Below the pieces are notes generated by a model that worked only from the letters and a program-made list of their open reading frames with translations, was not told the origin of the DNA and did not search any database. A stretch of DNA of 64,000 nucleotides from a virus. The stretch lies in the UHGV virus genome UHGV-1351772. The stretch is one strand, 5' to 3'. Positions 8,277 to 49,897 of the stretch are shown one piece after another. A program made the position numbers and the translations under genes. Position 1 is the stretch's first letter, and every line of letters starts with the position of its first letter.

Positions 8277-8840
8277 ATGGCTAATACGCTATTAGGTAAA
8301 TCAGGAAAACAACTGGTTTATGAGTTATTAGTAAAAAAGAATCCTGGTTTGGTAGAGAAAGGTATTACAATCGATAAGTTGAATTTTGGTACACCGTCAC
8401 ATATTCCTGCGGTAGAAACACCAGAAACCCAATTTACACGATTAAATACCCAACTTAGCGTCCAGGGAATTATTGAACAGAAAACGTTTGGTAAAATCGA
8501 CGTTATTTATCGTCGATTGGATTTAGAGCACCTCTTAGGTGACTTTGTAGTTTCTGTTGCGGGTGTTAATGCGGCTACGGTATCTGAGGTACTACAGCTT
8601 TTCCGCAATAAGTACAATTTACAGATTACCGACGATGAAGTTGAGAACCCAACAGCTGCACCAGACAGCAAAGATAAAACCATCATTATCATGAATGGGA
8701 CATCTTTGGCATGGACAGGGCGGCTGGAAGTGTACTTAACAGAGCTGCCGTCCGACGGTAAGGATATTTCGAAGTTGATTAAAGTCACTGAACTTGACGG
8801 TTTGACGTATATCTCTTCTGGGATTGTTCCAGGCGCTTAA
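8277..8840 (+). CDS. Hypothetical protein
   Basis: 187-aa ORF, ATG preceded by GAGAGGAAATA; ends at bidirectional terminator. Confidence 0.5.
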   Translation: MANTLLGKSGKQLVYELLVKKNPGLVEKGITIDKLNFGTPSHIPAVETPETQFTRLNTQLSVQGIIEQKTFGKIDVIYRRLDLEHLLGDFVVSVAGVNAATVSEVLQLFRNKYNLQITDDEVENPTAAPDSKDKTIIIMNGTSLAWTGRLEVYLTELPSDGKDISKLIKVTELDGLTYISSGIVPGA

Positions 8841-8861
8841 AAAAGAAAAAAAATAAGAAAG

Positions 8862-8902
8862 TCTACCTACCTCCGAAAGGAGGTAGGTACTTTTATTTAT
8901 TT
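8862..8902. terminator. Bidirectional intrinsic terminator between convergent genes
   Basis: Stem TACCTACCTCC / GGAGGTAGGTA with GAAA loop, A-run upstream and T-run (TTTTATTTATTT) downstream. Confidence 0.7.
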
Positions 8903-9727
8903 CGCCAGATCTGCTTCTTTTACAAAGATACCGTCGGCGTTCAGATAACCTTTACGGTCTTTGATTTCGTGCCAGGCCAAAGAGAAACAATGGCGAATGT
9001 TAAGACGATAATAGAGAGCGAGTCGCGCAAGACGATGTAAAGCCCAACCTAACGTAACAGTACCCAGTTCAGTACGTAAGAACGCAGTAGCGAAGATTTC
9101 GGTAGCCTCTAAATACAACTGGTGTGGATATTTGGTATCGTTTAAACGTTCTTCAACGTCAGCGACATCATCTACCTGCAATTGTAAACCGCGTTCGATG
9201 ACTTCAGCGGTTGTCATTCCGCCAGTCACTCTGTCCTTATCCAGTTCCAGGATGTTTACCAGAACCACCAACGCATCGCCGATGCCGTCCATGATCAGTT
9301 CAGGTTTGTTTTTGCTGATACCTGTTGCAATCTCACCAAATTCTTCATAGAACTTTGTGATTTGAGTTTCCAGTTTACCGTTGTCGAGAATACCACGTTC
9401 TTTAGACCAACCTTTAACACGTTCTACACAGTTTTCAATAGAGTAGACCGGAACAGATTCTGTATGCATTACCGTGCCGTTGTAAACAGCATCGGTAAGC
9501 TTAATAGGCGCTACAATTGTTTCGATGTCCAGTTCTTGATTACCGGTGTGACGTTTACCTTCTACACGAATACGGTTGGTACCAGGGTTTACACCAATTG
9601 TGTAAATAGCATCGAACTGTACTGCATTCTCATTCAGAGCGCGCAGTTGTGCGTTAACTTCTTCCAGGTGCTGACCAGGATTAACCACGATGTTGTAAAT
9701 AGTGTTGATGTCAAAACGTTCGCCCAT
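8897..9727 (-). CDS. MazG-like nucleotide pyrophosphohydrolase domain protein with extra N- and C-terminal regions
   Basis: 276 aa; central segment YEEFGEIATGI...MDGIGDALVVLVNILE fits the MazG EExGE...D.hGD.L pattern; flanking regions unassigned. Confidence 0.4.
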   Translation of the reverse strand: MGERFDINTIYNIVVNPGQHLEEVNAQLRALNENAVQFDAIYTIGVNPGTNRIRVEGKRHTGNQELDIETIVAPIKLTDAVYNGTVMHTESVPVYSIENCVERVKGWSKERGILDNGKLETQITKFYEEFGEIATGISKNKPELIMDGIGDALVVLVNILELDKDRVTGGMTTAEVIERGLQLQVDDVADVEERLNDTKYPHQLYLEATEIFATAFLRTELGTVTLGWALHRLARLALYYRLNIRHCFSLAWHEIKDRKGYLNADGIFVKEADLAK

Positions 9728-18296: not shown

Positions 18297-18367
18297 AATT
18301 CACTCCTAAAGAATGTCTCACGTAGATAATATCTGTCTGACTTCTTTTTGAAATTGAGGTAGTAAGA

Positions 18368-27412: not shown

Positions 27413-27448
27413 TTTAATAACTCCAATGGTGTTACACCTGGATAATAT

Positions 27449-28117
27449 CTATCTAAGAATATTTTTAGCGAAAAAAGGATCGACTGTAAACTCCCTCACC
27501 TGTGAGTCATAACCCGAATGTATCTGATCGCTACTGAGCAAATACCCGTCTAAATCGTGTGGAAGAATCCAAGAATCGCCTTGTTTAAAAATACCATAAT
27601 CTGTTGTTCCAGAGGAAAAAACGATTTCCTCTGGAGACGAATAGATGTGGCGTAAGGCAAGATCTGACGGCTTTAACACGATTAATCGAACGGGATGTTG
27701 ACTGACTGCCTCTTTAATAAACTGTTCACGATTAAACCAAATTATTTTTTCGGGGTAAGTTTCGAATTCAGCCCATGTCCGCGTGATAACTAATTTGGAA
27801 ATCTTTCTCAATTCTTCAGAATGCTCTGCGTAGCCGATACACTCCTTGCGCACTTCATGATTTTCTACCGATGCTGTGAATTTTTGGAATAGGTGTTGTT
27901 GGAAAAAGCCGTTCTCCGGGATATCACAACCCGCGTTGTATAGTGCAATGATCTCCCACAACAACGAAAGAGAAAACACAAATGCTAACTTTTCCACAAC
28001 TTCCCAATCTTCGGAGTAAGGGGCTTTAAAGCCCCAATACTGCCGTGCGTTATACATAAAGTGAGTTTGTAAAAACCGAGGGGCTTTTGACAAGACCTCA
28101 CTATAAACGATCAGCAT
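27449..28117 (-). CDS. Hypothetical protein
   Basis: 222-aa ORF. Confidence 0.45.
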   Translation of the reverse strand: MLIVYSEVLSKAPRFLQTHFMYNARQYWGFKAPYSEDWEVVEKLAFVFSLSLLWEIIALYNAGCDIPENGFFQQHLFQKFTASVENHEVRKECIGYAEHSEELRKISKLVITRTWAEFETYPEKIIWFNREQFIKEAVSQHPVRLIVLKPSDLALRHIYSSPEEIVFSSGTTDYGIFKQGDSWILPHDLDGYLLSSDQIHSGYDSQVREFTVDPFFAKNILR

Positions 28118-30458: not shown

Positions 30459-30917
30459 TCAGTACAAACACGATGTCAAGTATTGGTTGTACGAATCGAG
30501 TAGTGTCTGACGGTCGGAGCGGTAATTCCACAACAAATTATTGAGTTTACGCGATAGGTCACGGCTAATCTCCTGGGGCGTTAAAGAGCTTTCGTCAAGA
30601 GATAAGCGTTCAGGTACAACATGTAACTTCGGTAACTCATAACGCTCACAAAGTGGAGCCAGCATTGGTGGGCTCCAGCCACGTTTAACGGCTTGTTGGT
30701 TTAAATTTCGGGTGTAGACATAAACGTAGTAAGCATAGGTGTTGACATCCGCAACATACTCACGCATTGCGTTATTGTCAATTTTCCAATTCACCATTAT
30801 TGGTGGTGTAGGAGGAAGTTCCAGTGGCCTATAAGCTGGACGTTTAACTTCGTCGCCGTAGCTATTACTCACCAACCCCACGAACACCATCATGATGAAT
30901 AACAGCATTTTCATCAA
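30459..30917 (-). CDS. Secreted protein (Sec signal peptide)
   Basis: 152 aa; N-terminal MMKMLLFIMMVFVGLVSNSYG; no lipobox. Confidence 0.45.
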   Translation of the reverse strand: MMKMLLFIMMVFVGLVSNSYGDEVKRPAYRPLELPPTPPIMVNWKIDNNAMREYVADVNTYAYYVYVYTRNLNQQAVKRGWSPPMLAPLCERYELPKLHVVPERLSLDESSLTPQEISRDLSRKLNNLLWNYRSDRQTLLDSYNQYLTSCLY

Positions 30918-35086: not shown

Positions 35087-35566
35087 TTAAAATAATGGCA
35101 AGTTACGCCATTGTCCTACCGAGTAAAAAGCTTTTGGATGTTTACGGATATACGCTTTCGCTTCTTCTGGCAACCAACGGTCACCTACCAGTTTTTGTTG
35201 TGCAACAATTACTGCCATCAACAAATAAGGGTTTTTCGCACCGGGAAACTTTGCATTGGTTTCTAGCGCAATATCCAACATTGACGACCAGCCCAGTAAT
35301 TTATGCTGCGCCGGTAAACGTTCTTCAATATACATCAGCCAGTTCATGATTTGTTTAGGTTTATACGGACAGGTATAATTCGCCCAACACACCATGACGA
35401 ACTTAATAGCCTTCGCAATCACCCATACAGGGACAGTCACGAAAAGGCAGAAAATAGCCAACTGCGATGCGGGCGCTTCGACAAAAGTAATCGCCACAAG
35501 GACCATAAACAATTCAAGTACCACAAACCAAAAACGCGTTGGATAACGCCAAATGAACTTTATCAT
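35087..35566 (-). CDS. Membrane protein (two predicted N-terminal TM segments)
   Basis: 159 aa; FWFVVLELFMVLVAITFV and LAIFCLFVTVPVWVIAKAI. Confidence 0.45.
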   Translation of the reverse strand: MIKFIWRYPTRFWFVVLELFMVLVAITFVEAPASQLAIFCLFVTVPVWVIAKAIKFVMVCWANYTCPYKPKQIMNWLMYIEERLPAQHKLLGWSSMLDIALETNAKFPGAKNPYLLMAVIVAQQKLVGDRWLPEEAKAYIRKHPKAFYSVGQWRNLPLF

Positions 35567-35632: not shown

Positions 35633-36142
35633 TTAGAAGAACGGCTGATTTGGAATGACAGCGTACTCTAAAATGAACATGTGTTCTGGGGCGTCTTCTT
35701 TACGCCAGACCTTGTGTGTCGACACAAGTTTTTCCAGAATCGTTAGAAAACTACGCTGGCAGTATGTGTTTTCACCAAGCAGTAGATTTTGAAGTTCTAC
35801 AGTAGCGTCCATATACGCCTGTTTAAAGACTAAATTACGGTTATACTGCCCGGTAAAATTCCAAAGCAAGACTTTCCCTTCTTCGGTTTCTTTTACCGTT
35901 GGTCGTAAACCACAAATCCACAGTAAGGCAAGGTTGACGTTCCAGTCAAACTCTAAACCTTCTTCTTCGTCATCACCGAATGCTGTGGGTAAAGCATCGT
36001 AAAATTCGTGTTTCTCTGCGAATTCTTCATCCGACTTAATCTCGTCTTCGATACTGCTTCGGACGATACTGTAAACGTCTTTCGCGGTCAATTGTGCGGC
36101 TTTTGTAATGCCTTTATACCAATCGGTTACTACGATGCTCAA
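35633..36142 (-). CDS. Hypothetical protein
   Basis: 169-aa ORF. Confidence 0.45.
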   Translation of the reverse strand: MSIVVTDWYKGITKAAQLTAKDVYSIVRSSIEDEIKSDEEFAEKHEFYDALPTAFGDDEEEGLEFDWNVNLALLWICGLRPTVKETEEGKVLLWNFTGQYNRNLVFKQAYMDATVELQNLLLGENTYCQRSFLTILEKLVSTHKVWRKEDAPEHMFILEYAVIPNQPFF

Positions 36143-36864
36143 AGGGTAACTCCTCTATTGATTGGAAAACTCGTGTTTATCGTATCCCAAATTCTACTAA
36201 CTTCCGCCAGTTGAATCTGACGTGGTGTTTTCTTCGCAAACGCAAGCTGACGTGGGGCCGAGCCCACAACAACAGGCACATCGATTTTCGCGCTATAGAA
36301 CGCGGCGTCTTTCATAAAGCCTGCCATTTCTCGTTGTGCTGCTCGAGATTTGCTTTTGATTCGCGTGTGAGCGCCACTTTCACCCCAGTGGTAAGCTAAC
36401 GCAATTTCAGCCATGGTGGGCTTGCGTTTGAGTCGTTTGGTTAACCCCTTCTCAAGATGTTTAACATACGCGGCAGCCAGCAAAACAGCATTACGCGGAT
36501 TATATAAATCGGCGTTCTGACTAAGACCTAATTCTTTTCCATAAAGCCTTAGCAGATTACGCTTGGTACTTGGAAGCATCTGTACCAGGCTGTGTGCTCG
36601 TGAGCTTTTGTTGTAAGCCTTGGGATCAAAACGTGATTCGCGATAAATCAGCGTAATCATCAGCTTAGGATCAACGCCTTGCTTTCGTGAGATTTCCACA
36701 ATTAACGGGCTGACTTTTTCGAACCGATGTTGGATTTGTGCAAACTCACGCTGATGCTTAGAATGTGGCGTTGACGTTGACGCCTGTGCGTTAAACGCGA
36801 AAAGTGTTACCAGTAAAAGAAAGAAGATACGAAACATTTTGTTTCTCCAGTTGGATTTATACAT
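36139..36864 (-). CDS. Secreted lytic transglycosylase (SLT domain with signal peptide)
   Basis: 241 aa; signal peptide MFRIFFLLLVTLFAFNAQAS; SLT motif YRESRFDPKAYNKSSRAHSLVQMLPST and ALAYHWGESG. Confidence 0.65.
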   Translation of the reverse strand: MYKSNWRNKMFRIFFLLLVTLFAFNAQASTSTPHSKHQREFAQIQHRFEKVSPLIVEISRKQGVDPKLMITLIYRESRFDPKAYNKSSRAHSLVQMLPSTKRNLLRLYGKELGLSQNADLYNPRNAVLLAAAYVKHLEKGLTKRLKRKPTMAEIALAYHWGESGAHTRIKSKSRAAQREMAGFMKDAAFYSAKIDVPVVVGSAPRQLAFAKKTPRQIQLAEVSRIWDTINTSFPINRGVTL

Positions 36865-36937: not shown

Positions 36938-37498
36938 CTATTTAAAAGAGTTTGGAATTAATGACTCTGCTTCTTGATACAACTTATCAGGTAAGTATAA
37001 CGTGTAGCGTTGCCTCCTCGGTTCAAGTTTTTTGTAAAGCCACAAAAAGATTTCTTGTCTTTCCCAGGAATCTAACCACCCGTTTGCCATTCCAAGTGGA
37101 GGGATAGCAACGCTGGTATCCAGATCCTCAGCACAATCCGCCAGTGCGGTAATGCCCGCAGTAACATAAGAAACCTGGGACTTTAAGCGCCAATGGGTTT
37201 TCGTGGGGAGCAAGATACACTTTTCGTCAGAGTAAACGTAAACGTTTCCAATCTTAATTTCGTTTTCACGACACCGCTTACGATAATTCTGGTAAAGGTT
37301 GGGGTAGCGTTCACGACACGCGAGTGCAATGCCGCGACCCATCGCTCCTACGCAGTTAATGGTAACGACTTTATAGTCTTCGGGCGCATTAAAAAGATCG
37401 TTATCAATTTCAGATTCTTTACGTACCGTTAACATAACGAAACGCCCGGAGTTGATGTGTAGTATTAAAACGTGTACCGCCGATTGATAGCTCGACAA
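36938..37498 (-). CDS. Macro domain protein (TARG1/OARD1-like, Macro_2 type)
   Basis: DLFNAPEDYKVVTINCVGAMGRGIALACRERYP and VAIPPLGMANGWLD fit the TARG1-like macro-domain pattern; ORF-finder start is TTG, a more likely ATG is at about 37435. Confidence 0.5.
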   Translation of the reverse strand: MSSYQSAVHVLILHINSGRFVMLTVRKESEIDNDLFNAPEDYKVVTINCVGAMGRGIALACRERYPNLYQNYRKRCRENEIKIGNVYVYSDEKCILLPTKTHWRLKSQVSYVTAGITALADCAEDLDTSVAIPPLGMANGWLDSWERQEIFLWLYKKLEPRRQRYTLYLPDKLYQEAESLIPNSFK

Positions 37499-38159: not shown

Positions 38160-38609
38160 TTAGAATGTTTTGCTAAAATCGACCCACTCACGATCGCGTG
38201 AGTAAACCGCCTGATAGCCGCGTCGGATGAAATACTCTTTTGCTTCTTTACATTTCGCATACATGCCAGTAACAATCTCGCCGAAAACTTCATCAGCTGC
38301 AATTGCTTTGAAAATCTCTTTCATTACACCCCGTTGACGATAGTCTGGGAGCACGTATACCGAACGTATCTTAAGTGAACCGTTACGATTCCGATAACTA
38401 CAGTATCCTACCGCGACATCATCCTGATACACCAGAACTATGCAGTTACCTTCGATCAGCTGTCGCGCATTTAACTTCGGCACCGACGTTTTGATTTTCA
38501 GTAACGTGGCCTGGTGGTCTAAGTAACGGTAGTGTAGTTTGAGTAAATCGGCAGCTTGTCGCTCACCGACTTTAGAAGATGCGTTCAACAAATAAATTTC
38601 CATTTGCAA
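38160..38609 (-). CDS. GNAT-family N-acetyltransferase
   Basis: 149 aa; motif A-like IRSVYVLPDYRQRGVMKEIFKAI. Confidence 0.55.
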   Translation of the reverse strand: MQMEIYLLNASSKVGERQAADLLKLHYRYLDHQATLLKIKTSVPKLNARQLIEGNCIVLVYQDDVAVGYCSYRNRNGSLKIRSVYVLPDYRQRGVMKEIFKAIAADEVFGEIVTGMYAKCKEAKEYFIRRGYQAVYSRDREWVDFSKTF

Positions 38610-38930: not shown

Positions 38931-39116
38931 CTAATTCCGCCATTCGCATTCGCGTTGACGCCAAATTGAACCCCACGATAGTTTAATCAGATAAGATGAA
39001 ACTACCCATAAAATCATCACCACACAAAACATGACATAAAGAACCGCTAGAATGGACATGAAGCCAAACCCTGCCGCATCCACAATATGACGGAACCAAT
39101 CAGTTTGCATAAACAA
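38931..39116 (-). CDS. Small membrane protein (61 aa)
   Basis: Hydrophobic core FGFMSILAVLYVMFCVVMILWVV; start overlaps the stop of the SbcC-like gene. Confidence 0.35.
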   Translation of the reverse strand: MFMQTDWFRHIVDAAGFGFMSILAVLYVMFCVVMILWVVSSYLIKLSWGSIWRQRECEWRN

Positions 39117-41604
39117 TTTTTACTCCTTCGTTATACACCGCAGGCAATGTCACCCCTTCCGGTTCGATGACACAGTACGATGCTTCATTAAGTTTAGAAT
39201 GAACCTCGGCTTCGTGGGAGACTACCAACAGTTGAGAAAATTCTCCCGAGTTTGCTAACGTTTTAATAAAGCCGACCAGGTTGTTACGGTGCTCCTCATC
39301 CATGCCTTCCGAAGGCTCATCCAAAAGCAATGGAAACTGATGCAACTTCAGCGCTTTGTACGCAGTCAGCCTGAACATCAGATTAAATATCGCACGCTGC
39401 GCCTTAGACCCTTTACGCACGTCAGGAACAGGCTCAGGATGCGTTTTTAGCTGGACAGGAAAAGTATAATCCAAATCGCCGTCAGTGAGGTCACAAGGCA
39501 TAACGCGCATGGGGTACGTCCAGACCTGTTCGATATAACGCGTCATTAACTCTGTGATTCTAACGATAGCGTTGTAAAAATACTTTCTAAGTACACCCTT
39601 TTCTGGAGAGAAGGCTTGAATCATCAGTTTGTTATTGAACTGCTGGGCTTGTAAGTCAGCAAGTTCGCGTTCCAAACTGTTGAGCTGATTCAATTCATTT
39701 TCCATCTGACGATAACGTTCGCGTGCGGTTGTAAAAGCATCCAGCTTCCCTTCTCGTGCACGTAAGAGTTCCTCGACGACCGTATTTGTCAACGTAACCT
39801 TAACATCACTCTCTAACCGTTCGAATAACGCACTGAAATCATCTACAGCACGTTTAACATTCACCAGATAGGTAAGTGTCGTGTTAGCCAGTTCGTGCTC
39901 TCTACGACGCATTGAGAGCATTTCTGTGGCTTTACCTAATCGTGACTGTTGGAAAGCGATTTTCTGTTGTAAAGCACCATCGACGTTACCAACGGCCGCC
40001 ACGGCATCCTGCCATTCTTTTTCCGCCTTCACTAACCGTTGTCGGGTTTCATGGTACTCAATAGCAGAGTACAACTCGCTGTCAAACGCTGCGCATAGAC
40101 TCCCGAACTGTTCACGTGATTCTGTGAAAACGTTACGTTCTTGCAAACGCTTAAAGAACATGCTCAATACCGGGTCCTTTGAATACGTCAGTACAATCTC
40201 ACGAACCTGCCGCATATAAGTTACATCAGATTCTAATTCAACACGATCGCGTAATAAGGTCTCTAACTGCGTTTGCAGTTCCGTGCGCTGCTGTTGTTGT
40301 CCGCGAATCGAAGACTCAAGTTCAGGTAAAGAACGCGTAACACCAGGCCGAAACTTAAACCGACACTGCGGGCAATCCACTTCCGCTGTTTCTAAGTAGT
40401 GATTACGTTCGTGATTTAAATTCTGTAAAACGTTCTCCACTCGCTGGAGTCTATCCCGCAACCCTGCGGTTTTTTGATCCATCACCAGAAGCCGTTCTTC
40501 CAAAACATTGAGTTTTTCAGTTGAATGAATTGCGTCCAGTGTTGTTCCTAACCGTTGCCCCCAGACACGCGCATCGGTAGCCGCACGAAGTTGGTCTAAA
40601 TTGACGTTGTCGTTAAATAGACCCGGAAAGAGATGCTCGGTGTCCCATTTGGTAAGTAACTCACGTAAACGCGCCAATGTATTCTTGAGACCTTCGTGAT
40701 TCCGCATCAGGTAGTCTTGTCGTGTCGATTCATCCATCAATAACGACAAGTCTTTATTCAACATCGATACCTCTGTTTCAGTAGACACGACAGCTTCGCG
40801 GGCCGTCGCTTCGTTTTGTCGCGCGGCCAGTATCTGTTCATCAGTAGGCAGTCCACCACGATGTTGTAATATTGCGTCGATGGTTGGGCCCAAGCTGTTT
40901 AATAACGCTTGGATTGTTTCGATGGTGACGGCACGATTTAATCCTGGCAACTGTTCGATTTCTCGGTTCAGTTCACGTAAATCCGATTCCAAACCTTTTA
41001 ATCTCGTCGCCAACTGCTGCCGTTCTTCCTCGTTCTCAATAACACGCGTCCGCAATTCGGCGATTTTACGGCTGGTGATTTCAATACCCCCATTTAAGGC
41101 AGTAAGGTTTTTACGTAAACGTTGATAAAACCCTAACGCGTAGGTGAGGTCAGAGGTACTTAAACGGTAAAACCACTTACGACGCAGTTCCGTTCCTGCA
41201 TCCGTTAAAAGCACTTCTCCGTTCAGTAGTTCTTTAATCTCTTTTGTAATGCCTGTGATTTCTTCAACACGGGAGTTGTAGACTTTCGCATTACCTTGCT
41301 CGACGATCTTTGCCCCCGTGGTCAAGTTCTCAATATCACAAACCAGTGAGTTCCCTTTACGGGCAACTTTGAATCGATAGCGTTGATCACCAACTAAACA
41401 GTAGTTCGTGTAAGAACCGCCGTCCCTGAATTCGGTTTTGGCCGGTGCTAAGGGTAAGAATACAGACAGTAGACTGGTTTTCCCGCAACCGTTTCCACCC
41501 AGGATAATTGTTGTTGGGGACTGGATAGTGAAATCGAATGTTTCAATTTCATGTAACCCCATCCCCGTAAAACCTTTGAGTATAATGCGTTCAACTTTTA
41601 GCAT
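39100..41604 (-). CDS. SbcC/Rad50-like ATPase (SMC-type, coiled-coil)
   Basis: Start set at MLKVERIILKGF with GGAGGTG upstream; Walker A ILGGNGCGKTSLL; long coiled-coil middle; Walker B/D-loop LLLDEPSEGMDEEHR and LLVVSHE. Confidence 0.65.
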   Translation of the reverse strand: MLKVERIILKGFTGMGLHEIETFDFTIQSPTTIILGGNGCGKTSLLSVFLPLAPAKTEFRDGGSYTNYCLVGDQRYRFKVARKGNSLVCDIENLTTGAKIVEQGNAKVYNSRVEEITGITKEIKELLNGEVLLTDAGTELRRKWFYRLSTSDLTYALGFYQRLRKNLTALNGGIEITSRKIAELRTRVIENEEERQQLATRLKGLESDLRELNREIEQLPGLNRAVTIETIQALLNSLGPTIDAILQHRGGLPTDEQILAARQNEATAREAVVSTETEVSMLNKDLSLLMDESTRQDYLMRNHEGLKNTLARLRELLTKWDTEHLFPGLFNDNVNLDQLRAATDARVWGQRLGTTLDAIHSTEKLNVLEERLLVMDQKTAGLRDRLQRVENVLQNLNHERNHYLETAEVDCPQCRFKFRPGVTRSLPELESSIRGQQQQRTELQTQLETLLRDRVELESDVTYMRQVREIVLTYSKDPVLSMFFKRLQERNVFTESREQFGSLCAAFDSELYSAIEYHETRQRLVKAEKEWQDAVAAVGNVDGALQQKIAFQQSRLGKATEMLSMRRREHELANTTLTYLVNVKRAVDDFSALFERLESDVKVTLTNTVVEELLRAREGKLDAFTTARERYRQMENELNQLNSLERELADLQAQQFNNKLMIQAFSPEKGVLRKYFYNAIVRITELMTRYIEQVWTYPMRVMPCDLTDGDLDYTFPVQLKTHPEPVPDVRKGSKAQRAIFNLMFRLTAYKALKLHQFPLLLDEPSEGMDEEHRNNLVGFIKTLANSGEFSQLLVVSHEAEVHSKLNEASYCVIEPEGVTLPAVYNEGVKIVYAN

Positions 41605-41630
41605 ACCCACCTCCATAAAGACGGAGTGTG

Positions 41631-41676
41631 GTGTAAAAAGAAAAAAATAAAGAAAGGGAGAACCCGAAGGTTCTCC
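41631..41676 (-). terminator. Intrinsic terminator (leftward)
   Basis: Stem GGGAGAACC / GGTTCTCCC, loop CGAA; long T-run on the minus strand. Confidence 0.7.
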
Positions 41677-41682
41677 CAAACG

Positions 41683-42850: not shown

Positions 42851-42880
42851 CGTAAAAAGGACCCCGGACGTACCGGGGTC
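42851..42880 (-). terminator. Intrinsic terminator (leftward)
   Basis: Stem GACCCCGG / CCGGGGTC; T-run on the minus strand. Confidence 0.6.
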
Positions 42881-42890
42881 AAGACTACAC

Positions 42891-43280
42891 TCAATGATCT
42901 AATTCAATAGCACCAGCCATCTTGCCCCGTTCTTCGATAACAATCAGATAACGGTCGCGAGATTTGCTTTTAGCGAGAGTTAAGACAACAGTAGGGTCGC
43001 ATGTTTTCGTGGTGATAGGAAGAACCTCTCTTTCGACGGAATCGAGCAGAAAGTAATAACCTGCGGGACACATTGTGCCACCGTCAGCTTTTACCAGAAT
43101 ATAGCGCCCGTCTGCGCCGACTTCTTGGCAGATTGTTTCACCGACTTCGCAAACTTCAAACCCCGGAGGATTGTACTGATAATCGGTATTGTTGTTTGGG
43201 GTTAGCAGTAAATCGTTAACTTGAGTAGATGCTGCTACACTCAGGGAGAAGAAGAATGCTAAAACGCAGACGAGACGCAT
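42891..43280 (-). CDS. Small secreted Cys-containing protein (signal peptide), member of tandem cluster
   Basis: 129 aa; signal peptide MRLVCVLAFFFSLSVAAS; pattern C.E.G..CQ...RY...GG..C shared with 43291-43701. Confidence 0.5.
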   Translation of the reverse strand: MRLVCVLAFFFSLSVAASTQVNDLLLTPNNNTDYQYNPPGFEVCEVGETICQEVGADGRYILVKADGGTMCPAGYYFLLDSVEREVLPITTKTCDPTVVLTLAKSKSRDRYLIVIEERGKMAGAIELDH

Positions 43281-43290
43281 GAGTTACTCC

Positions 43291-43701
43291 TTAAATTTTA
43301 AGTTTATCCATAGCTACAACGATAGGTTTTTCCGAAGTGTCTAATATCCCTACCATTGGCACACCATCTACGACTTCGAAGAATGGTTTGTTATTACCAG
43401 AGCATAGACGTTTGTCGTTGTATTCGAGACGTTGGGCCTTCCACGTTTCGAGGTTGAGTACAGACATTGGGCTGTCGTAGCACCAGGCACCACCTTGCTC
43501 AACGATGAATACGTATCTGCTACCTTTGTATTTAAACAGACTCTTCGCCTGACAGTACAACCCGTCAATTTCCGTACAATAGAAATCATCGGTGCTATTG
43601 ACGTACTTAATATTGTCTGGCAACTGTATTGTCTTTGCTGTAGCGTTGACAGAGAACAGAACAGCCATTGCAATGAGAAGAGTATTAATGATAGTTTTCA
43701 T
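43291..43701 (-). CDS. Small secreted Cys-containing protein (signal peptide), member of tandem cluster
   Basis: 136 aa; signal peptide MKTIINTLLIAMAVLFSVNATA. Confidence 0.5.
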   Translation of the reverse strand: MKTIINTLLIAMAVLFSVNATAKTIQLPDNIKYVNSTDDFYCTEIDGLYCQAKSLFKYKGSRYVFIVEQGGAWCYDSPMSVLNLETWKAQRLEYNDKRLCSGNNKPFFEVVDGVPMVGILDTSEKPIVVAMDKLKI

Positions 43702-43712
43702 GATAAAAGTCC

Positions 43713-44198
43713 TTAGTATTTAGATTGTTCTACGTACTTCTTAACCAGGTAAGCGAATTCGGCAACACCGATATCACCGAACCAAATCAGGTAACCGGGG
43801 TCGATGTTGTAGTAATAACCGACGAGTTTCTTGGTGTGTGGGTTGTATAGCGTTACGATGTATTCCCAACCACAAGCGTTAGCTTTACAACCACCGCTTT
43901 CAATCCAGATTTTGTTGTTGATGTTTACCGGATACATGTTACCGCCAGGGCCATCCATGTAACCTTTAGAGCCGAACATACCATCCAGTCCCACAGGGTC
44001 TAGTGTTTTATCAACAACGGCTTTAAACGACTTATCGGTATCGTACAAGTCGTTGATGTTTGGGCACGCATTTGGCTGACCTTCCCAAGCGTTTCCATCA
44101 CAGGTAAGCAATTCGTCTGCGGAGGCCGCATCTACAGTTGGTGTGACACCGATAAACAAGAAAACCAGAAAGAACATCAGTGCATGTAAACGTTTCAT
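43713..44198 (-). CDS. Small secreted protein (signal peptide), member of tandem cluster
   Basis: 161 aa; signal peptide MKRLHALMFFLVFLFIGVTPTVDA. Confidence 0.5.
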   Translation of the reverse strand: MKRLHALMFFLVFLFIGVTPTVDAASADELLTCDGNAWEGQPNACPNINDLYDTDKSFKAVVDKTLDPVGLDGMFGSKGYMDGPGGNMYPVNINNKIWIESGGCKANACGWEYIVTLYNPHTKKLVGYYYNIDPGYLIWFGDIGVAEFAYLVKKYVEQSKY

Positions 44199-44216
44199 TG
44201 TAACTACTCCTTTAGA

Positions 44217-44609
44217 TTATTCAGCAGGGCGATTCAAGGTAACACGTCCGATTAATTCGGCGTTGTGAAAGAAGTCCACAGCGGTATAGTTACCAACGGA
44301 TAGCGGATGGATACTAACTGACATTACTTTTGGTTGTTCGCAGGCGATATCCGTCAGACGTTGGTAGACTTGCGCACGGGTGTCAGCAATGAGTAACCCC
44401 GTACACGCTTCACCACGCACTAAACGATAAACTTGCAGTTTACCGAAACTGCGCATTAACGTAGGCGTCTCATCCGGGTTGATAATCGGTGAGTCAGGAG
44501 CCGGTTCGTAATAGCGGACATCCGAATCACCGAAAGCATAAGTGCCAGTAATTCCGACCGCACAGAAAATAATGATGGTATAAAGTATAGTTCTGATATT
44601 CATTTTCAC
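44217..44609 (-). CDS. Small secreted protein (signal peptide), member of tandem cluster
   Basis: 130 aa; signal peptide MKMNIRTILYTIIIFCAVGITGTYA. Confidence 0.5.
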   Translation of the reverse strand: MKMNIRTILYTIIIFCAVGITGTYAFGDSDVRYYEPAPDSPIINPDETPTLMRSFGKLQVYRLVRGEACTGLLIADTRAQVYQRLTDIACEQPKVMSVSIHPLSVGNYTAVDFFHNAELIGRVTLNRPAE

Positions 44610-44631
44610 GCACTCTAAAAAAGATTAATAG

Positions 44632-45093
44632 TTATTTGTTAGGACGGGTGTGTCCACAGTTCTGGAAGAAAGTTTCAGACAGACGTTCGCCTTCTACGGT
44701 AAAGTTAGCGGTGTCGTTACCATTGATACTCACACTGAAAGTTTTGGCATTACCGATAGCATTAACGAAAGCAACCCAAGCGTGTTCTGCTTTGTCACTA
44801 CCGTCCACGGTAGGGATGTTATAGGTCTTGCCGTTTACGACAATATCCAACGTGTTATCTTCCGCGTTAGTTGCACCTACGGGTTCACCGTAATACCAAA
44901 CCATGTGACCGTAAAATTTGCGATTCGCAGTTTCTGTGTCACAGTTGATAGACAGTCCGTTTCCGGCGGTGTCTTCAATTTCGTAAACTGCCTGGCCAGG
45001 GTTTTGTATTTGTTCCCAGCTGTTGATAGCGGCGTGTGCGCTATTGAGGCCGAAAGTTAAAATGGTTATTAAGAAAGTGATAAAGGTTTTCAT
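44632..45093 (-). CDS. Small secreted protein (signal peptide), member of tandem cluster
   Basis: 153 aa; signal peptide MKTFITFLITILTFGLNSAHA. Confidence 0.5.
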   Translation of the reverse strand: MKTFITFLITILTFGLNSAHAAINSWEQIQNPGQAVYEIEDTAGNGLSINCDTETANRKFYGHMVWYYGEPVGATNAEDNTLDIVVNGKTYNIPTVDGSDKAEHAWVAFVNAIGNAKTFSVSINGNDTANFTVEGERLSETFFQNCGHTRPNK

Positions 45094-45511: not shown

Positions 45512-45541
45512 CTTTAGTTCTCCTAAAATGGTTTTCGTTAA

Positions 45542-45585
45542 GTGAGAGCTTTTGTACTCTCACCTAAGTAATATATATCTGAAAT
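45542..45585 (+). promoter_or_regulatory. Conserved hairpin + 22-bp AT-rich motif (copy A), candidate phage-specific promoter/regulatory element
   Basis: Hairpin GTGAGAG-CTTTTGTA-CTCTCAC followed by CTAAGTAATATATATCTGAAAT; 20 of 22 positions identical to copy B at 49851-49872. Confidence 0.4.
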
Positions 45586-45603
45586 TATTTTTAATAATAA
45601 CGA

Positions 45604-45636
45604 ACAAAAAATAAAAGGTGGGGGTAAACCCCCACC
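45604..45636 (-). terminator. Intrinsic terminator (leftward)
   Basis: Stem GGTGGGGGT / ACCCCCACC, loop AA; T-run on the minus strand. Confidence 0.7.
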
Positions 45637-46231: not shown

Positions 46232-47005
46232 CTATTGATTAAGTTTTACATCGGCAATAAACAGCAATTGTTTACCATGTTGCTGCACTTCTTTCCAACC
46301 CAGTTTCATAGCAGCGTCAACAACATCTAACATGCTGTAACGGGACATCAACGCGGTTGATTTTGTTCCTGACATTAAATAAAGTGGCTCATTAGGGCAA
46401 CGGTCTCGAGCATCAGGAAGTTCTCGAATAACCACTGAGCCTTCGGGTACGGTAACAACATGAATCACGGTAAATGGTCTCTTGTGTGTTAAGTAGATAC
46501 GGAACCCAACGTGTTCAGATTCATGAAAGATTTTCTTCACGACCACATCTTTCAGTGTCGTCTGAACATCAGCCCCAGGTAATATCGTGGTTTCACGTGA
46601 AACGAAGCAACGACTATTTTCAATCGTGGAGAAATAATTACGTATCGGCAAACTGGCGTTATGATCGCGCAGTTTTTTGCTCAGTAGATCGAAGTTCAGT
46701 TCTTTAACTTTTTCTAACCACTCTTTGGCTTGTTGAATGTAATAACTACCGACAGCGCGATAAGTTAATACCTTACCTGTGCTCACTTGCCAAAGCTTGA
46801 TGCTTAGTGAATTTGGCTTATAGCGACGATACTCACCCCGCGTATGGTTGATGCGCTCGTAACGCTCTACATCATCAACGGGTGCAGATTCGACCGATTG
46901 TAATTGCAGCGTACGATCTAATCTATCGGCAAATAGTAGTGATGTTAGCGAACCTTCGATCATATACGGTTCGGTTTTAAAGATATCGTCTAAATGGACT
47001 TTCAT
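46232..47005 (-). CDS. Member of tandem paralog family with conserved C-terminal module
   Basis: 257 aa; C-terminus AAMKLGWKEVQQHGKQLLFIADV; N-terminus MKVHLDDIF resembles that of 48841-49578. Confidence 0.5.
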   Translation of the reverse strand: MKVHLDDIFKTEPYMIEGSLTSLLFADRLDRTLQLQSVESAPVDDVERYERINHTRGEYRRYKPNSLSIKLWQVSTGKVLTYRAVGSYYIQQAKEWLEKVKELNFDLLSKKLRDHNASLPIRNYFSTIENSRCFVSRETTILPGADVQTTLKDVVVKKIFHESEHVGFRIYLTHKRPFTVIHVVTVPEGSVVIRELPDARDRCPNEPLYLMSGTKSTALMSRYSMLDVVDAAMKLGWKEVQQHGKQLLFIADVKLNQ

Positions 47006-49817: not shown

Positions 49818-49872
49818 AGGGACTGAACTGGTACTTCAGTCCCTATTCACTTAAGTAAAATATATCTGAAAT
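49818..49872 (+). promoter_or_regulatory. Conserved hairpin + 22-bp AT-rich motif (copy B), candidate phage-specific promoter for gene 49898
   Basis: Hairpin AGGGACTGAA-CTGGTAC-TTCAGTCCCT, then TTAAGTAAAATATATCTGAAAT ending about 25 nt before the ATG; AAGGA ribosome-binding site between. Confidence 0.45.
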
Positions 49873-49897
49873 CAATTCCGATCTAAGGAACGTCCCG

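Follow-up and report, generated by a model that had tools for sequence, protein, structure and literature searches.

The virus genome UHGV-1351772, of which we analyzed a stretch of 64,000 nucleotides (nt; hereafter the window), encodes on its minus strand an operon of five small proteins, P1 to P5 (positions 42891–45093), that are predicted to be exported to the periplasm. One of them, P3, is a divergent member of the Ivy superfamily that keeps the Ivy scaffold and its stapled loop, and homologues of several of these proteins are found in CP4-type islands of Escherichia coli. By analogy with the T4 protein Spackle, we propose, with somewhat less than even confidence, that the cassette could act as a cell-envelope "shield," excluding incoming phages in the periplasm by inhibiting wall-degrading enzymes.

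The original prediction described five adjacent leftward genes whose products have canonical Sec signal peptides and no lipobox, and these points all hold. The five open reading frames (ORFs) occupy exactly 42891–45093 and encode, from P1 to P5, 129, 136, 161, 130, and 153 amino acids (aa). Shine–Dalgarno sequences are good for four of the five; P4 more likely begins at the ATG at 44603 (128 aa), matching gene calls in metagenomic sister contigs. Signal peptides were judged by a heuristic (N-terminal Lys or Arg, a hydrophobic core on the Kyte–Doolittle [KD] scale, and an AXA-like site) rather than by SignalP. By this measure all five proteins carry canonical Sec-type signals, with one or two N-terminal Lys or Arg residues, a core of at least 10 residues at KD 2.5–3.3, and, in the order P1 to P5, the predicted cleavage sites VAA/S, ATA/K, VDA/A, TYA/F, and AHA/A. 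No further hydrophobic segment occurs in P1–P5. None of them has a lipobox ([LVI][ASTVI][GAS]C), the cysteines of LVC in P1 and IFC in P4 lying in the wrong context. The mature proteins contain 4, 4, 4, 2, and 2 cysteines, all even counts, as expected for disulfide-bonded periplasmic proteins, and both signal-peptide and cysteine features are kept in all orthologues examined (six other phages) and in the bacterial homologues. In a crude scan, signal-peptide-like N-termini were found on 7 of 70 non-overlapping ORFs of the window. Five of these seven form this contiguous block, and by our own combinatorial estimate the chance of five out of seven falling in a single run of five is ∼1e-4. Export of all five proteins to the periplasm is thus a well-supported prediction, and we expect them to be disulfide-bonded products of a single unit. 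As a separate observation, the P4 orthologue gp180 of phage SPN3US (L001:5001–5402) has a perfect lipobox-like LAAC where P4 has IIFC, unlike most orthologues, and may be a lipoprotein in that phage.

P3 (43713–44198; 161 aa, four cysteines) has the predicted signal peptide MKRLHALMFFLVFLFIGVTPTVDA/A, with a Lys-Arg n-region, an h-region of KD 3.3, and the site VDA/A. Ivy is an established periplasmic protein (PMC2267010, in agreement with its product name in the K-12 record), and P3 aligns with it from end to end, its hydrophobic N-terminus lying opposite that of Ivy. The P3-family profile places CKANACG onto the CKPHDCG of the Ivy entries 1gpq and 1xs0 of the Protein Data Bank (PDB). An exhaustive search of 1.84 billion proteins with the P3 profile returned 55 relatives. 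Its matches include P0087 (8e-20), P0091 (1e-15), P0092 (6e-15), P0095 (3e-12), and P0104 (1e-8), each of which also scores above the Pfam Ivy gathering score, at 22–36 bits. The distant relatives are secreted proteins of ∼150 aa whose loop is mostly C-[EQK]-x-H-[ND]-C, and 20 of the 23 sequences in our alignment of P3 relatives match PF08816. In an AlphaFold model of P3 (predicted local distance difference test [pLDDT] 74, predicted template modeling score [pTM] 0.68), five strands are accompanied by two short helices and a C-terminal helix. This modeled topology corresponds to the published Ivy fold, a central five-stranded antiparallel β-sheet flanked by two short helices on one side and by an amphipathic helix on the opposite side (PMC2267010). 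The C-x4-C loop of P3 aligns with that of Ivy, which lies between the second and third strands. Because profile searches, model topology, and loop position agree, we conclude that P3 is a divergent Ivy-superfamily protein. The search for Ivy-like inhibitor folds that the original prediction had advised thus succeeds for one of the five proteins, P3.

The loop itself is altered. Translation and alignments set its codons, CKANAC (43872–43889), against CKPHDC, the loop that Ivy inserts into lysozyme. The two flanking cysteines, C104 and C109, do not vary across the 23 aligned sequences, among them the Ivy proteins of E. coli and phage PHB10, and are predicted to form a disulfide; between them Ala-Asn-Ala replaces the Pro-His-Asp of Ivy. 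An additional N-terminal pair, C33 and C45, is common to a wider C-x-x-H-N-C subgroup. P3 homologues in E. coli are 60–65% identical to P3, and their loops include CKAHAC or CKANTC. The loop histidine of Ivy reportedly contacts the active site of lysozyme. Since P3 has Asn in place of this histidine, the change suggests a target other than C-type lysozyme. Known Ivy proteins (E. coli YkfE, Pseudomonas aeruginosa Ivyp1; PF08816) share with P3 the fold, the periplasmic signal, and the position of the C-x4-C loop, but the P3 gene belongs to a lytic jumbo phage and shares its operon with four other genes for secreted proteins. Neither a tblastn search of 50,697 phage records with P3 nor a Foldseek search of the viral structures in BFVD with its model (E ≤ 1e-3) gave a match. 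Canonical Ivy was present in just one of those records, that of Escherichia phage PHB10. There the ORF (L018:2450–2863; MK524177 14588–15001; Pfam Ivy 71 bits, loop CKPHSC) is annotated hypothetical and lies directly after a holin–endolysin–Rz block and before the terminase genes.

Two further proteins, P1 (42891–43280; 129 aa) and P2 (43291–43701; 136 aa), had been called paralogous on the grounds of a shared motif spacing. The paralogy stands and the spacing does not: RY and GG-x-x-C are found in both proteins, but the first two cysteines are separated by 6 residues in one case and 7 in the other. PHROG profiles assign P1, P2, and P4 to three separate families without an assigned function (phrog_5248, phrog_8968, and phrog_9424, respectively) with weak cross-matches, among them one of P1 to phrog_8968. 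When hhalign was restricted to the mature parts, the P1 and P2 families matched each other at 4.5e-5 and matched the family of SPN3US gp181 at 7.1e-8 and 2.4e-11, respectively, and the four cysteine columns of the three families coincided in their alignment. Because these mature profile–profile matches link the families and the four cysteines align, P1 and P2 are, by sequence, true paralogues. Together with gp181 they make up a clade-specific, four-cysteine, all-β family of SPN3US-like jumbo phages. SPN3US and the Erwinia phage Asesino hold three members side by side, gp181 being the third copy. The P1/P2 superfamily was found only on contigs of at most ∼250 kb, typical of the phage clade, apart from one island copy and one fragment. 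The fragment, P0068, is a P2-like sequence of 116 aa (71% identity) on a 5.5-Mb bacterial contig and may be another chromosomal capture of a phage gene.

P4 (44217–44609; 128 or 130 aa, two cysteines) has relatives in 53 jumbo-phage records at 33–52% identity (tblastn). Against the P1 family it gives an hhalign E value of 0.017 over 96 columns, statistically weak but covering almost the whole protein, with both cysteines and a C-terminal G-R-x-T-L in register; against the merged P1/P2 family the value is 0.22. Its PHROG cross-match (E = 0.0032) was obtained with full-length sequence, to which the signal peptide may contribute. P4 is a possible, not secure, fourth member of the P1/P2 family. 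The P1 family also bears a tentative resemblance to the K-12 lipoprotein YfjS: hhalign gives 3.1e-4 with a score of 27.8, where 60 shuffles reached at most 17.4. The GGC-K-x-x-AC segment noted earlier in P3 is real, but it is the Ivy loop and unrelated to the P1/P2 motif. Kinship of P3 with P1 and P2 through this segment was considered and rejected, hhalign giving E = 0.35 for P3 against the P1 and P2 families. With the same method P3 and P5 showed no similarity to other cassette proteins or to one another, and the P1, P2, gp181, P4, and P5 families none to Ivy. The five proteins thus represent at least three unrelated families rather than a single expanded one. No relationship to MliC/PliC, Cor, or Llp, which had been put forward as candidates, was found, and neither by sequence nor by fold do P1, P2, P4, and P5 match the MliC/PliC, PliG, or PliI inhibitors. 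A PDB profile search with the P1/P2 family returned a spurious repeat match to the designed ThreeFoil protein and nothing else, and PDB searches with P4 gave nothing significant.

P5 (44632–45093; 153 aa, two cysteines, cleavage at AHA/A) belongs, as judged from profiles, to the YfjT family. Proteins 75–95% identical to it carry a precomputed Pfam match to PF27224 (YfjT); this family is apparently missing from the Pfam copy that we scanned locally, which gave no match for P5. A profile built from mature P5-family sequences matches E. coli K-12 YfjT with 70.9 bits over 109 positions (blastp 3e-14), and 19 alignment columns, both cysteines included, are invariant. A tblastn search of the phage records with P5 found no match. 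PDB searches gave nothing significant, the weak immunoglobulin V-domain matches of the YfjT profile (E ≥ 0.04) being noise. In the sister contig L009 two YfjT paralogues, 30% identical to each other (8598–9551), stand where the window has P6 and P5 (44632–45511); genes are replaced at this end of the operon. In the cryptic prophage CP4-57 of K-12, YfjT is a clear homologue of P5 with both cysteines kept. Its neighbor YfjS, unlike P1, is a lipoprotein, and its likeness to the P1 family is statistically weak. The two K-12 genes are adjacent, as the secreted-protein genes are in the phage, and the yfjS–yfjT pair (L016:12682–13616) may mirror the adjacent P4/P1-like and YfjT-like genes there. To judge by title and abstract, the listed papers in which yfjT appears are not concerned with what it does.

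The five genes form a single operon that also takes in a sixth, upstream gene for a non-secreted protein, P6 (45140–45511; 123 aa, without signal peptide, phrog_27024), the first ORF of the unit. In the direction of transcription the order is terminator, AT-rich motif, 5′ hairpin, P6, P5, P4, P3, P2, P1, terminator, with intergenic gaps of 10–46 nt from P6 to P1. The flanking terminators claimed by the original prediction are both real. The one that ends the operon (42860–42880; −19.5 kcal/mol, z −4.0) and the one that closes the preceding transcription unit (45617–45636; GGTGGGGG-TTTA-CCCCCACC plus a T-run; −17.7 kcal/mol, z −3.5) were each found by a terminator scan and by RNA folding. Between the second of these and P6 lies a motif (45561–45590; AAATAATTTCAGATATATATTAC-TTAGGT-G) that is a phage promoter by motif similarity, with its predicted start at G 45561. 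The predicted transcript would begin with a stem-loop (45540–45565; GGTGAGAG-loop-CTCTCACT; −13.8 kcal/mol, z −4.8), which is not kept at the other three copies of the motif in the window.

The conserved element seen earlier near 45.55 kb is likewise genuine. The window has four copies, each upstream of leftward genes (18318–18348, 27434–27464, 45560–45590, and 49847–49877), which follow CAGATA-x-ATATTA(C/T)-(6N)-G on the minus strand, the (6N)-G being kept in all four. Upstream of the cassette, the 17-nt core TTTCAGATATATATTAC is matched exactly in Asesino, pEa_SNUABM_29, and Caitlin, representing three other phage genera, and in L009, despite the encoded proteins being only ∼35–50% identical. 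A scan of genome contigs with this core gave chance-level matches over unrelated taxa. Early promoters on which the injected virion RNA polymerase acts have been mapped experimentally in the jumbo phage AR9, with the consensus AAATATATATTAT-(6N)-G+1 (PMC5312081). The cassette motif, GATATATATTAC-TTAGGT-G, fits such an element in being extended and AT-rich with a start site fixed 6 nt downstream, the predicted start G standing six nt past TATATTAC. By similarity we predict that it is a virion-polymerase early promoter of the type found in phiKZ-like phages. Because the motif matches the AR9 consensus, the unit is probably early, and the "early region" of the original prediction is plausible. 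The four copies could serve to map the early regulon of this phage.

Comparison with other phages places the window. A megablast search of the region against the 50,697 phage records matched nothing but a 56-nt intergenic (promoter) element common to Erwinia, Salmonella, and Escherichia jumbo phages, so that this collection lacks the phage itself, and the metagenomic sister contigs, such as L009, are ∼86% identical in DNA. At the protein level the neighborhood is syntenic with SPN3US (Seoulvirus), Asesino (Erskinevirus), and Machinavirus at 30–50% identity, in the shared order gp177-like gene, secreted-protein block, gp184-like gene, gp185-like gene, SbcC/SMC-like gp186. Because of this synteny and identity we assign the window to an SPN3US-like jumbo phage of enterobacteria. 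The orthologous blocks are gp180–gp183 in SPN3US and gp201–gp204 in Asesino. All of their products have signal peptides and all are annotated "hypothetical protein"; gp180 (Asesino gp201) corresponds to P4, gp182 to P2, and gp183 to P1. In both phages the third slot is taken not by P3 but by a further P1/P2-family paralogue (gp181 in SPN3US), and a YfjT gene is lacking.

Homologues of P3, P2, and P5, and tentatively of P1 (as YfjS), are held by CP4-type islands of E. coli. The P3 homologue occurs in 138 of 5426 complete E. coli genomes, always on the chromosome and always annotated hypothetical. Its surroundings include anti-phage or candidate anti-phage genes: a dynamin–YjcZ–patatin cluster is found upstream of it, and genes for DUF932, antirestriction, RadC, and CbeA/CbtA proteins are found downstream. 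It is preceded by another small secreted protein, Ec_180, which has no match in the phage records. In an O146 island the gene directly after the P3 homologue is a homologue of P2 (79% identity), and this two-gene block has 72–76% DNA identity with the phage block over ∼960 bp. The phage promoter motif is there too (L005:7031–7060, L022:4236–4262): upstream of the island module stand a terminator hairpin and then TTTCAGATATAT(A/G)TTA(T/C) with a G six nt on, which in one island is followed by GGTGAGA. Since the motif recurs in the phages as a regulatory element, the secreted-protein module was most likely transferred to the islands from a jumbo phage. The bases upstream of the motif in the islands are TTGAAA, which could act as a σ70 −35 box. 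In K-12, CP4-57 carries yfjT together with the anti-phage genes abpAB and rnlAB. A search of PADLOC-DB with the six proteins P1–P6 gave no match at E ≤ 1. Pfam and NCBIfam scans of P1–P5 likewise stayed below their thresholds throughout, a weak NCBIfam Ivy match of P3 being the one lead.

A functional lead comes from one of these bacterial relatives. According to a preprint, Hypo_04657 of E. coli O121 has an Ivy-like domain with the loop CKANTC in place of CKPHDC, its knock-down in a genome-wide CRISPR interference screen raises the fitness and plating efficiency of T7, and its authors propose that it inhibits a phage lysozyme (bioRxiv 10.1101/2024.04.20.590424). Exactly this CKANTC loop is found in the large E. 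coli/Shigella clusters P0011 and P0012, whose identity to P3 is 58–60%. Hypo_04657 shares with P3 the loop type CKAN-x-C, but it is chromosomal and island-borne rather than phage-borne, and the passages of the preprint consulted here do not mention phage homologues, partner genes, or the phage promoter motif. Since homologues lie in E. coli defense-type islands and knock-down of one reportedly raises T7 fitness, superinfection exclusion, which the original prediction listed among several possible roles, is the best-supported function. T7 gp16 has an N-terminal lytic transglycosylase that is used in genome entry and would fit the T7 phenotype. A side observation concerns the annotation of these proteins: the E. 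coli Ivy-like entries P0011, P0012, and P0144 (225–263 aa) are often over-extended. Their true start is MKRLHTLM, but the annotated frame already opens in what is left of the secreted-protein gene upstream and, in P0144, reads through the promoter motif as well. Such over-extension may explain the two-domain description of Hypo_04657 in the preprint.

The closest precedent for the proposed mode of action is T4 Spackle (gp61.3), which is produced early, acts in the periplasm, and inhibits gp5, the tail lysozyme of a superinfecting phage, but not the T4 endolysin (PMC7677548). Like P3, it is a small lytic-phage protein with a signal peptide, and it would represent the working mode of P3. The two proteins have no sequence or fold relationship: Spackle is an all-α bundle that acts allosterically, whereas P3 has the β-rich Ivy fold with an insertion loop, and none of P1–P5 has a PHROG or Pfam match to Spackle. 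On the exclusion hypothesis, the virion polymerase would transcribe the unit early in infection, Sec would export the five proteins, and DsbA-type oxidation would close their disulfides. P3 would then bind murein hydrolases of the lysozyme or lytic-transglycosylase fold on the tail or in the ejected core of a second phage, and its stapled loop would block them, so that the newcomer could not cross the wall. P1, P2, P4, and P5 are assumed to act at other periplasm-exposed steps of entry. The gene structure, the family assignments, the fold of P3, the island homologues, and the shared promoter motif are direct results of our comparisons; timing, export, target, and the exclusion phenotype follow from them by inference.

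Several points weigh against this proposal. P3 falls below the Pfam and NCBIfam thresholds for Ivy: Pfam gives no match at E ≤ 10, and NCBIfam NF007443 (Ivy C-type lysozyme inhibitor) gives a sub-threshold 18.6 bits (E = 1.3e-3) against a cut-off of 180. Its nearest relatives, P0002 and P0003, score 16.8 and 14.9 bits with the Pfam Ivy model, whose cut-off is 21. P3 also lacks the histidine that is central in canonical Ivy, and its inhibitory activity may be nil. The T7 phenotype comes, in the preprint, from a CRISPR interference screen with clonal validation, and the mechanism offered there is putative; the equation of Hypo_04657 with the P0011/P0012 type is our own tentative one, from loop motif and species. 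The functional lead is limited to P3 among the five proteins, and the structure model of P2 is of low confidence (pLDDT 64). Because P3 is missing from the cassettes of Seoulvirus, Erskinevirus, and Machinavirus, any role that it has is accessory. The early timing, finally, is deduced from the promoter motif.

Four other explanations deserve consideration. P3, made earlier, might silence the phage's own exported SLT-domain endolysin (36139–36864) in the periplasm until lysis and so serve as a lysis-timing device. The two genes are on the same strand and 6 kb apart, and the window protein, a homologue of the clade's "putative endolysin," combines the SLT domain with a signal-peptide-like or signal-arrest-release (SAR)-like N-terminus. 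Ivy reportedly inhibits the lytic transglycosylase MltB. Activity against goose-type as well as C-type lysozyme has also been reported for it (PMC2267010). We nevertheless consider this device unlikely: the endolysin is clade-wide (139 phage records), whereas P3 occurs only in the subgroup of the window (no match in the 50,697 phage records), P3 homologues are found in E. coli islands that lack that endolysin, and the phenotype reported in the preprint for the E. coli homologue is anti-phage. A classical Ivy role would have P3 protect the wall against host autolysins and lytic transglycosylases, or against environmental or animal lysozyme, throughout the lengthy infection cycle of a jumbo phage. 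In favor of it are the fold of P3 and the place of its loop, both as in Ivy, and likewise the enteric carriers (contigs labeled E. coli or Salmonella), the island copy in pathogenic E. coli lineages, and the canonical Ivy moron after the lysis genes of PHB10. The key histidine is replaced in P3, however, and the outer membrane already keeps out external lysozyme; this role, to which we assign a similarly low probability, also leaves the four other secreted proteins, the T7 phenotype, and the island context unexplained.

The genes could also be mobile cargo without a role in the phage cycle, secreted "morons" swapped between jumbo phages and islands and maintained by drift or by benefit to the host. 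Consistent with this, the P3 slot is empty in Machinavirus and holds a paralogue unrelated to P3 in SPN3US and Asesino, and upstream there are one or two YfjT copies or a gene for 428 aa, depending on the phage. Yet the order P4, P2, P1 is kept in at least three genera at 30–50% identity, which argues for selection; the promoter and terminators are conserved, and the signal peptides and cysteine pattern are strictly retained. We judge cargo status quite unlikely. A role as virion or assembly components (baseplate, fiber accessories, or spanin-like lysis proteins) is very improbable. The lipobox-like LAAC of SPN3US gp180 and an SPN3US baseplate gene a few kilobases away might hint at it, but cleavable Sec signal peptides are predicted on all five proteins, none of them matched a structural protein by PHROG, Pfam, or fold, and the lysis genes are located elsewhere. 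We found no support for virion components, and the study of the SPN3US virion and essential genes does not name gp180–gp183 in its main text. Beyond the exclusion hypothesis in its basic form, a more ambitious extension, which we hold doubtful, sees a modular anti-entry arsenal in which each protein acts against a different enzyme or step, with P1/P2, P4, and YfjT as new inhibitor families and with islands that captured parts of the operon together with its promoter. In its boldest version, the island copy may be switched on by the injected polymerase of an invading jumbo phage, so that the phage itself triggers the exclusion genes of the host.

The Ivy family is already known, as is, from the preprint, an Ivy-like E. 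coli protein with a CKAN-x-C loop. We found no report of a loop-altered Ivy relative borne by a jumbo phage and co-transcribed with four secreted-protein genes, of the P1/P2/gp181 paralogue family, or of a module and promoter motif common to jumbo phages and CP4-type islands. Superinfection exclusion and envelope-level defense are poorly understood in nucleus-forming jumbo phages, for which we know of no periplasmic exclusion factor. The locus provides a testable candidate, an altered-loop Ivy scaffold with four co-transcribed secreted partners conserved across three genera. Its genes and promoter motif are present in CP4-type islands of K-12 and of many pathogenic strains, and they offer a first functional lead for the uncharacterized yfjT and perhaps yfjS. 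More broadly, the island copies suggest a route by which hosts could convert phage exclusion genes into defense. If the target of P3 is a virion lysin, its altered loop would show how the Ivy scaffold can be retargeted from animal lysozymes to phage enzymes.

The surroundings of the operon hold several other genes of note. The SLT-domain protein (36139–36864, minus strand) is a homologue of the "putative endolysin" gp198 of SPN3US, with a Pfam SLT match of 53.6 bits and 51% identity to clade proteins annotated endolysin or transglycosylase. Its N-terminus, MFRIFFLLLVTLFAFNAQA/S, is signal-peptide-like or SAR-like, which points to an exported endolysin in this clade. The adjoining ORF 35087–35566 has several hydrophobic segments and may be a holin. 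A Macro-domain protein (36938–37498, minus strand; 27.6 bits) is encoded between the SbcC-like gene and the endolysin homologue, and at the position matching 38160–38609 (minus strand) the sister contigs carry a GNAT acetyltransferase-family gene. The SbcC/SMC-like ORF (39100–41679, minus strand) has as its mechanical start a TTG 25 codons before MLKVERI; the gene encodes 834 aa in the sister contigs, and the true start is probably near 41604. Outside the five cassette proteins and the SLT protein, the only signal-peptide-like ORF of the window is 30459–30917 (minus strand; 152 aa, two mature cysteines), which has no Pfam match. Finally, the genes just upstream of the cassette (window 46232–47005, minus strand; L009:5337–7874) are paralogues of one another, a small family with a C-terminal module in common (...GWKEVQQHGKQLLFIADV); L009 has three members, and pairwise E values go down to 2e-10.

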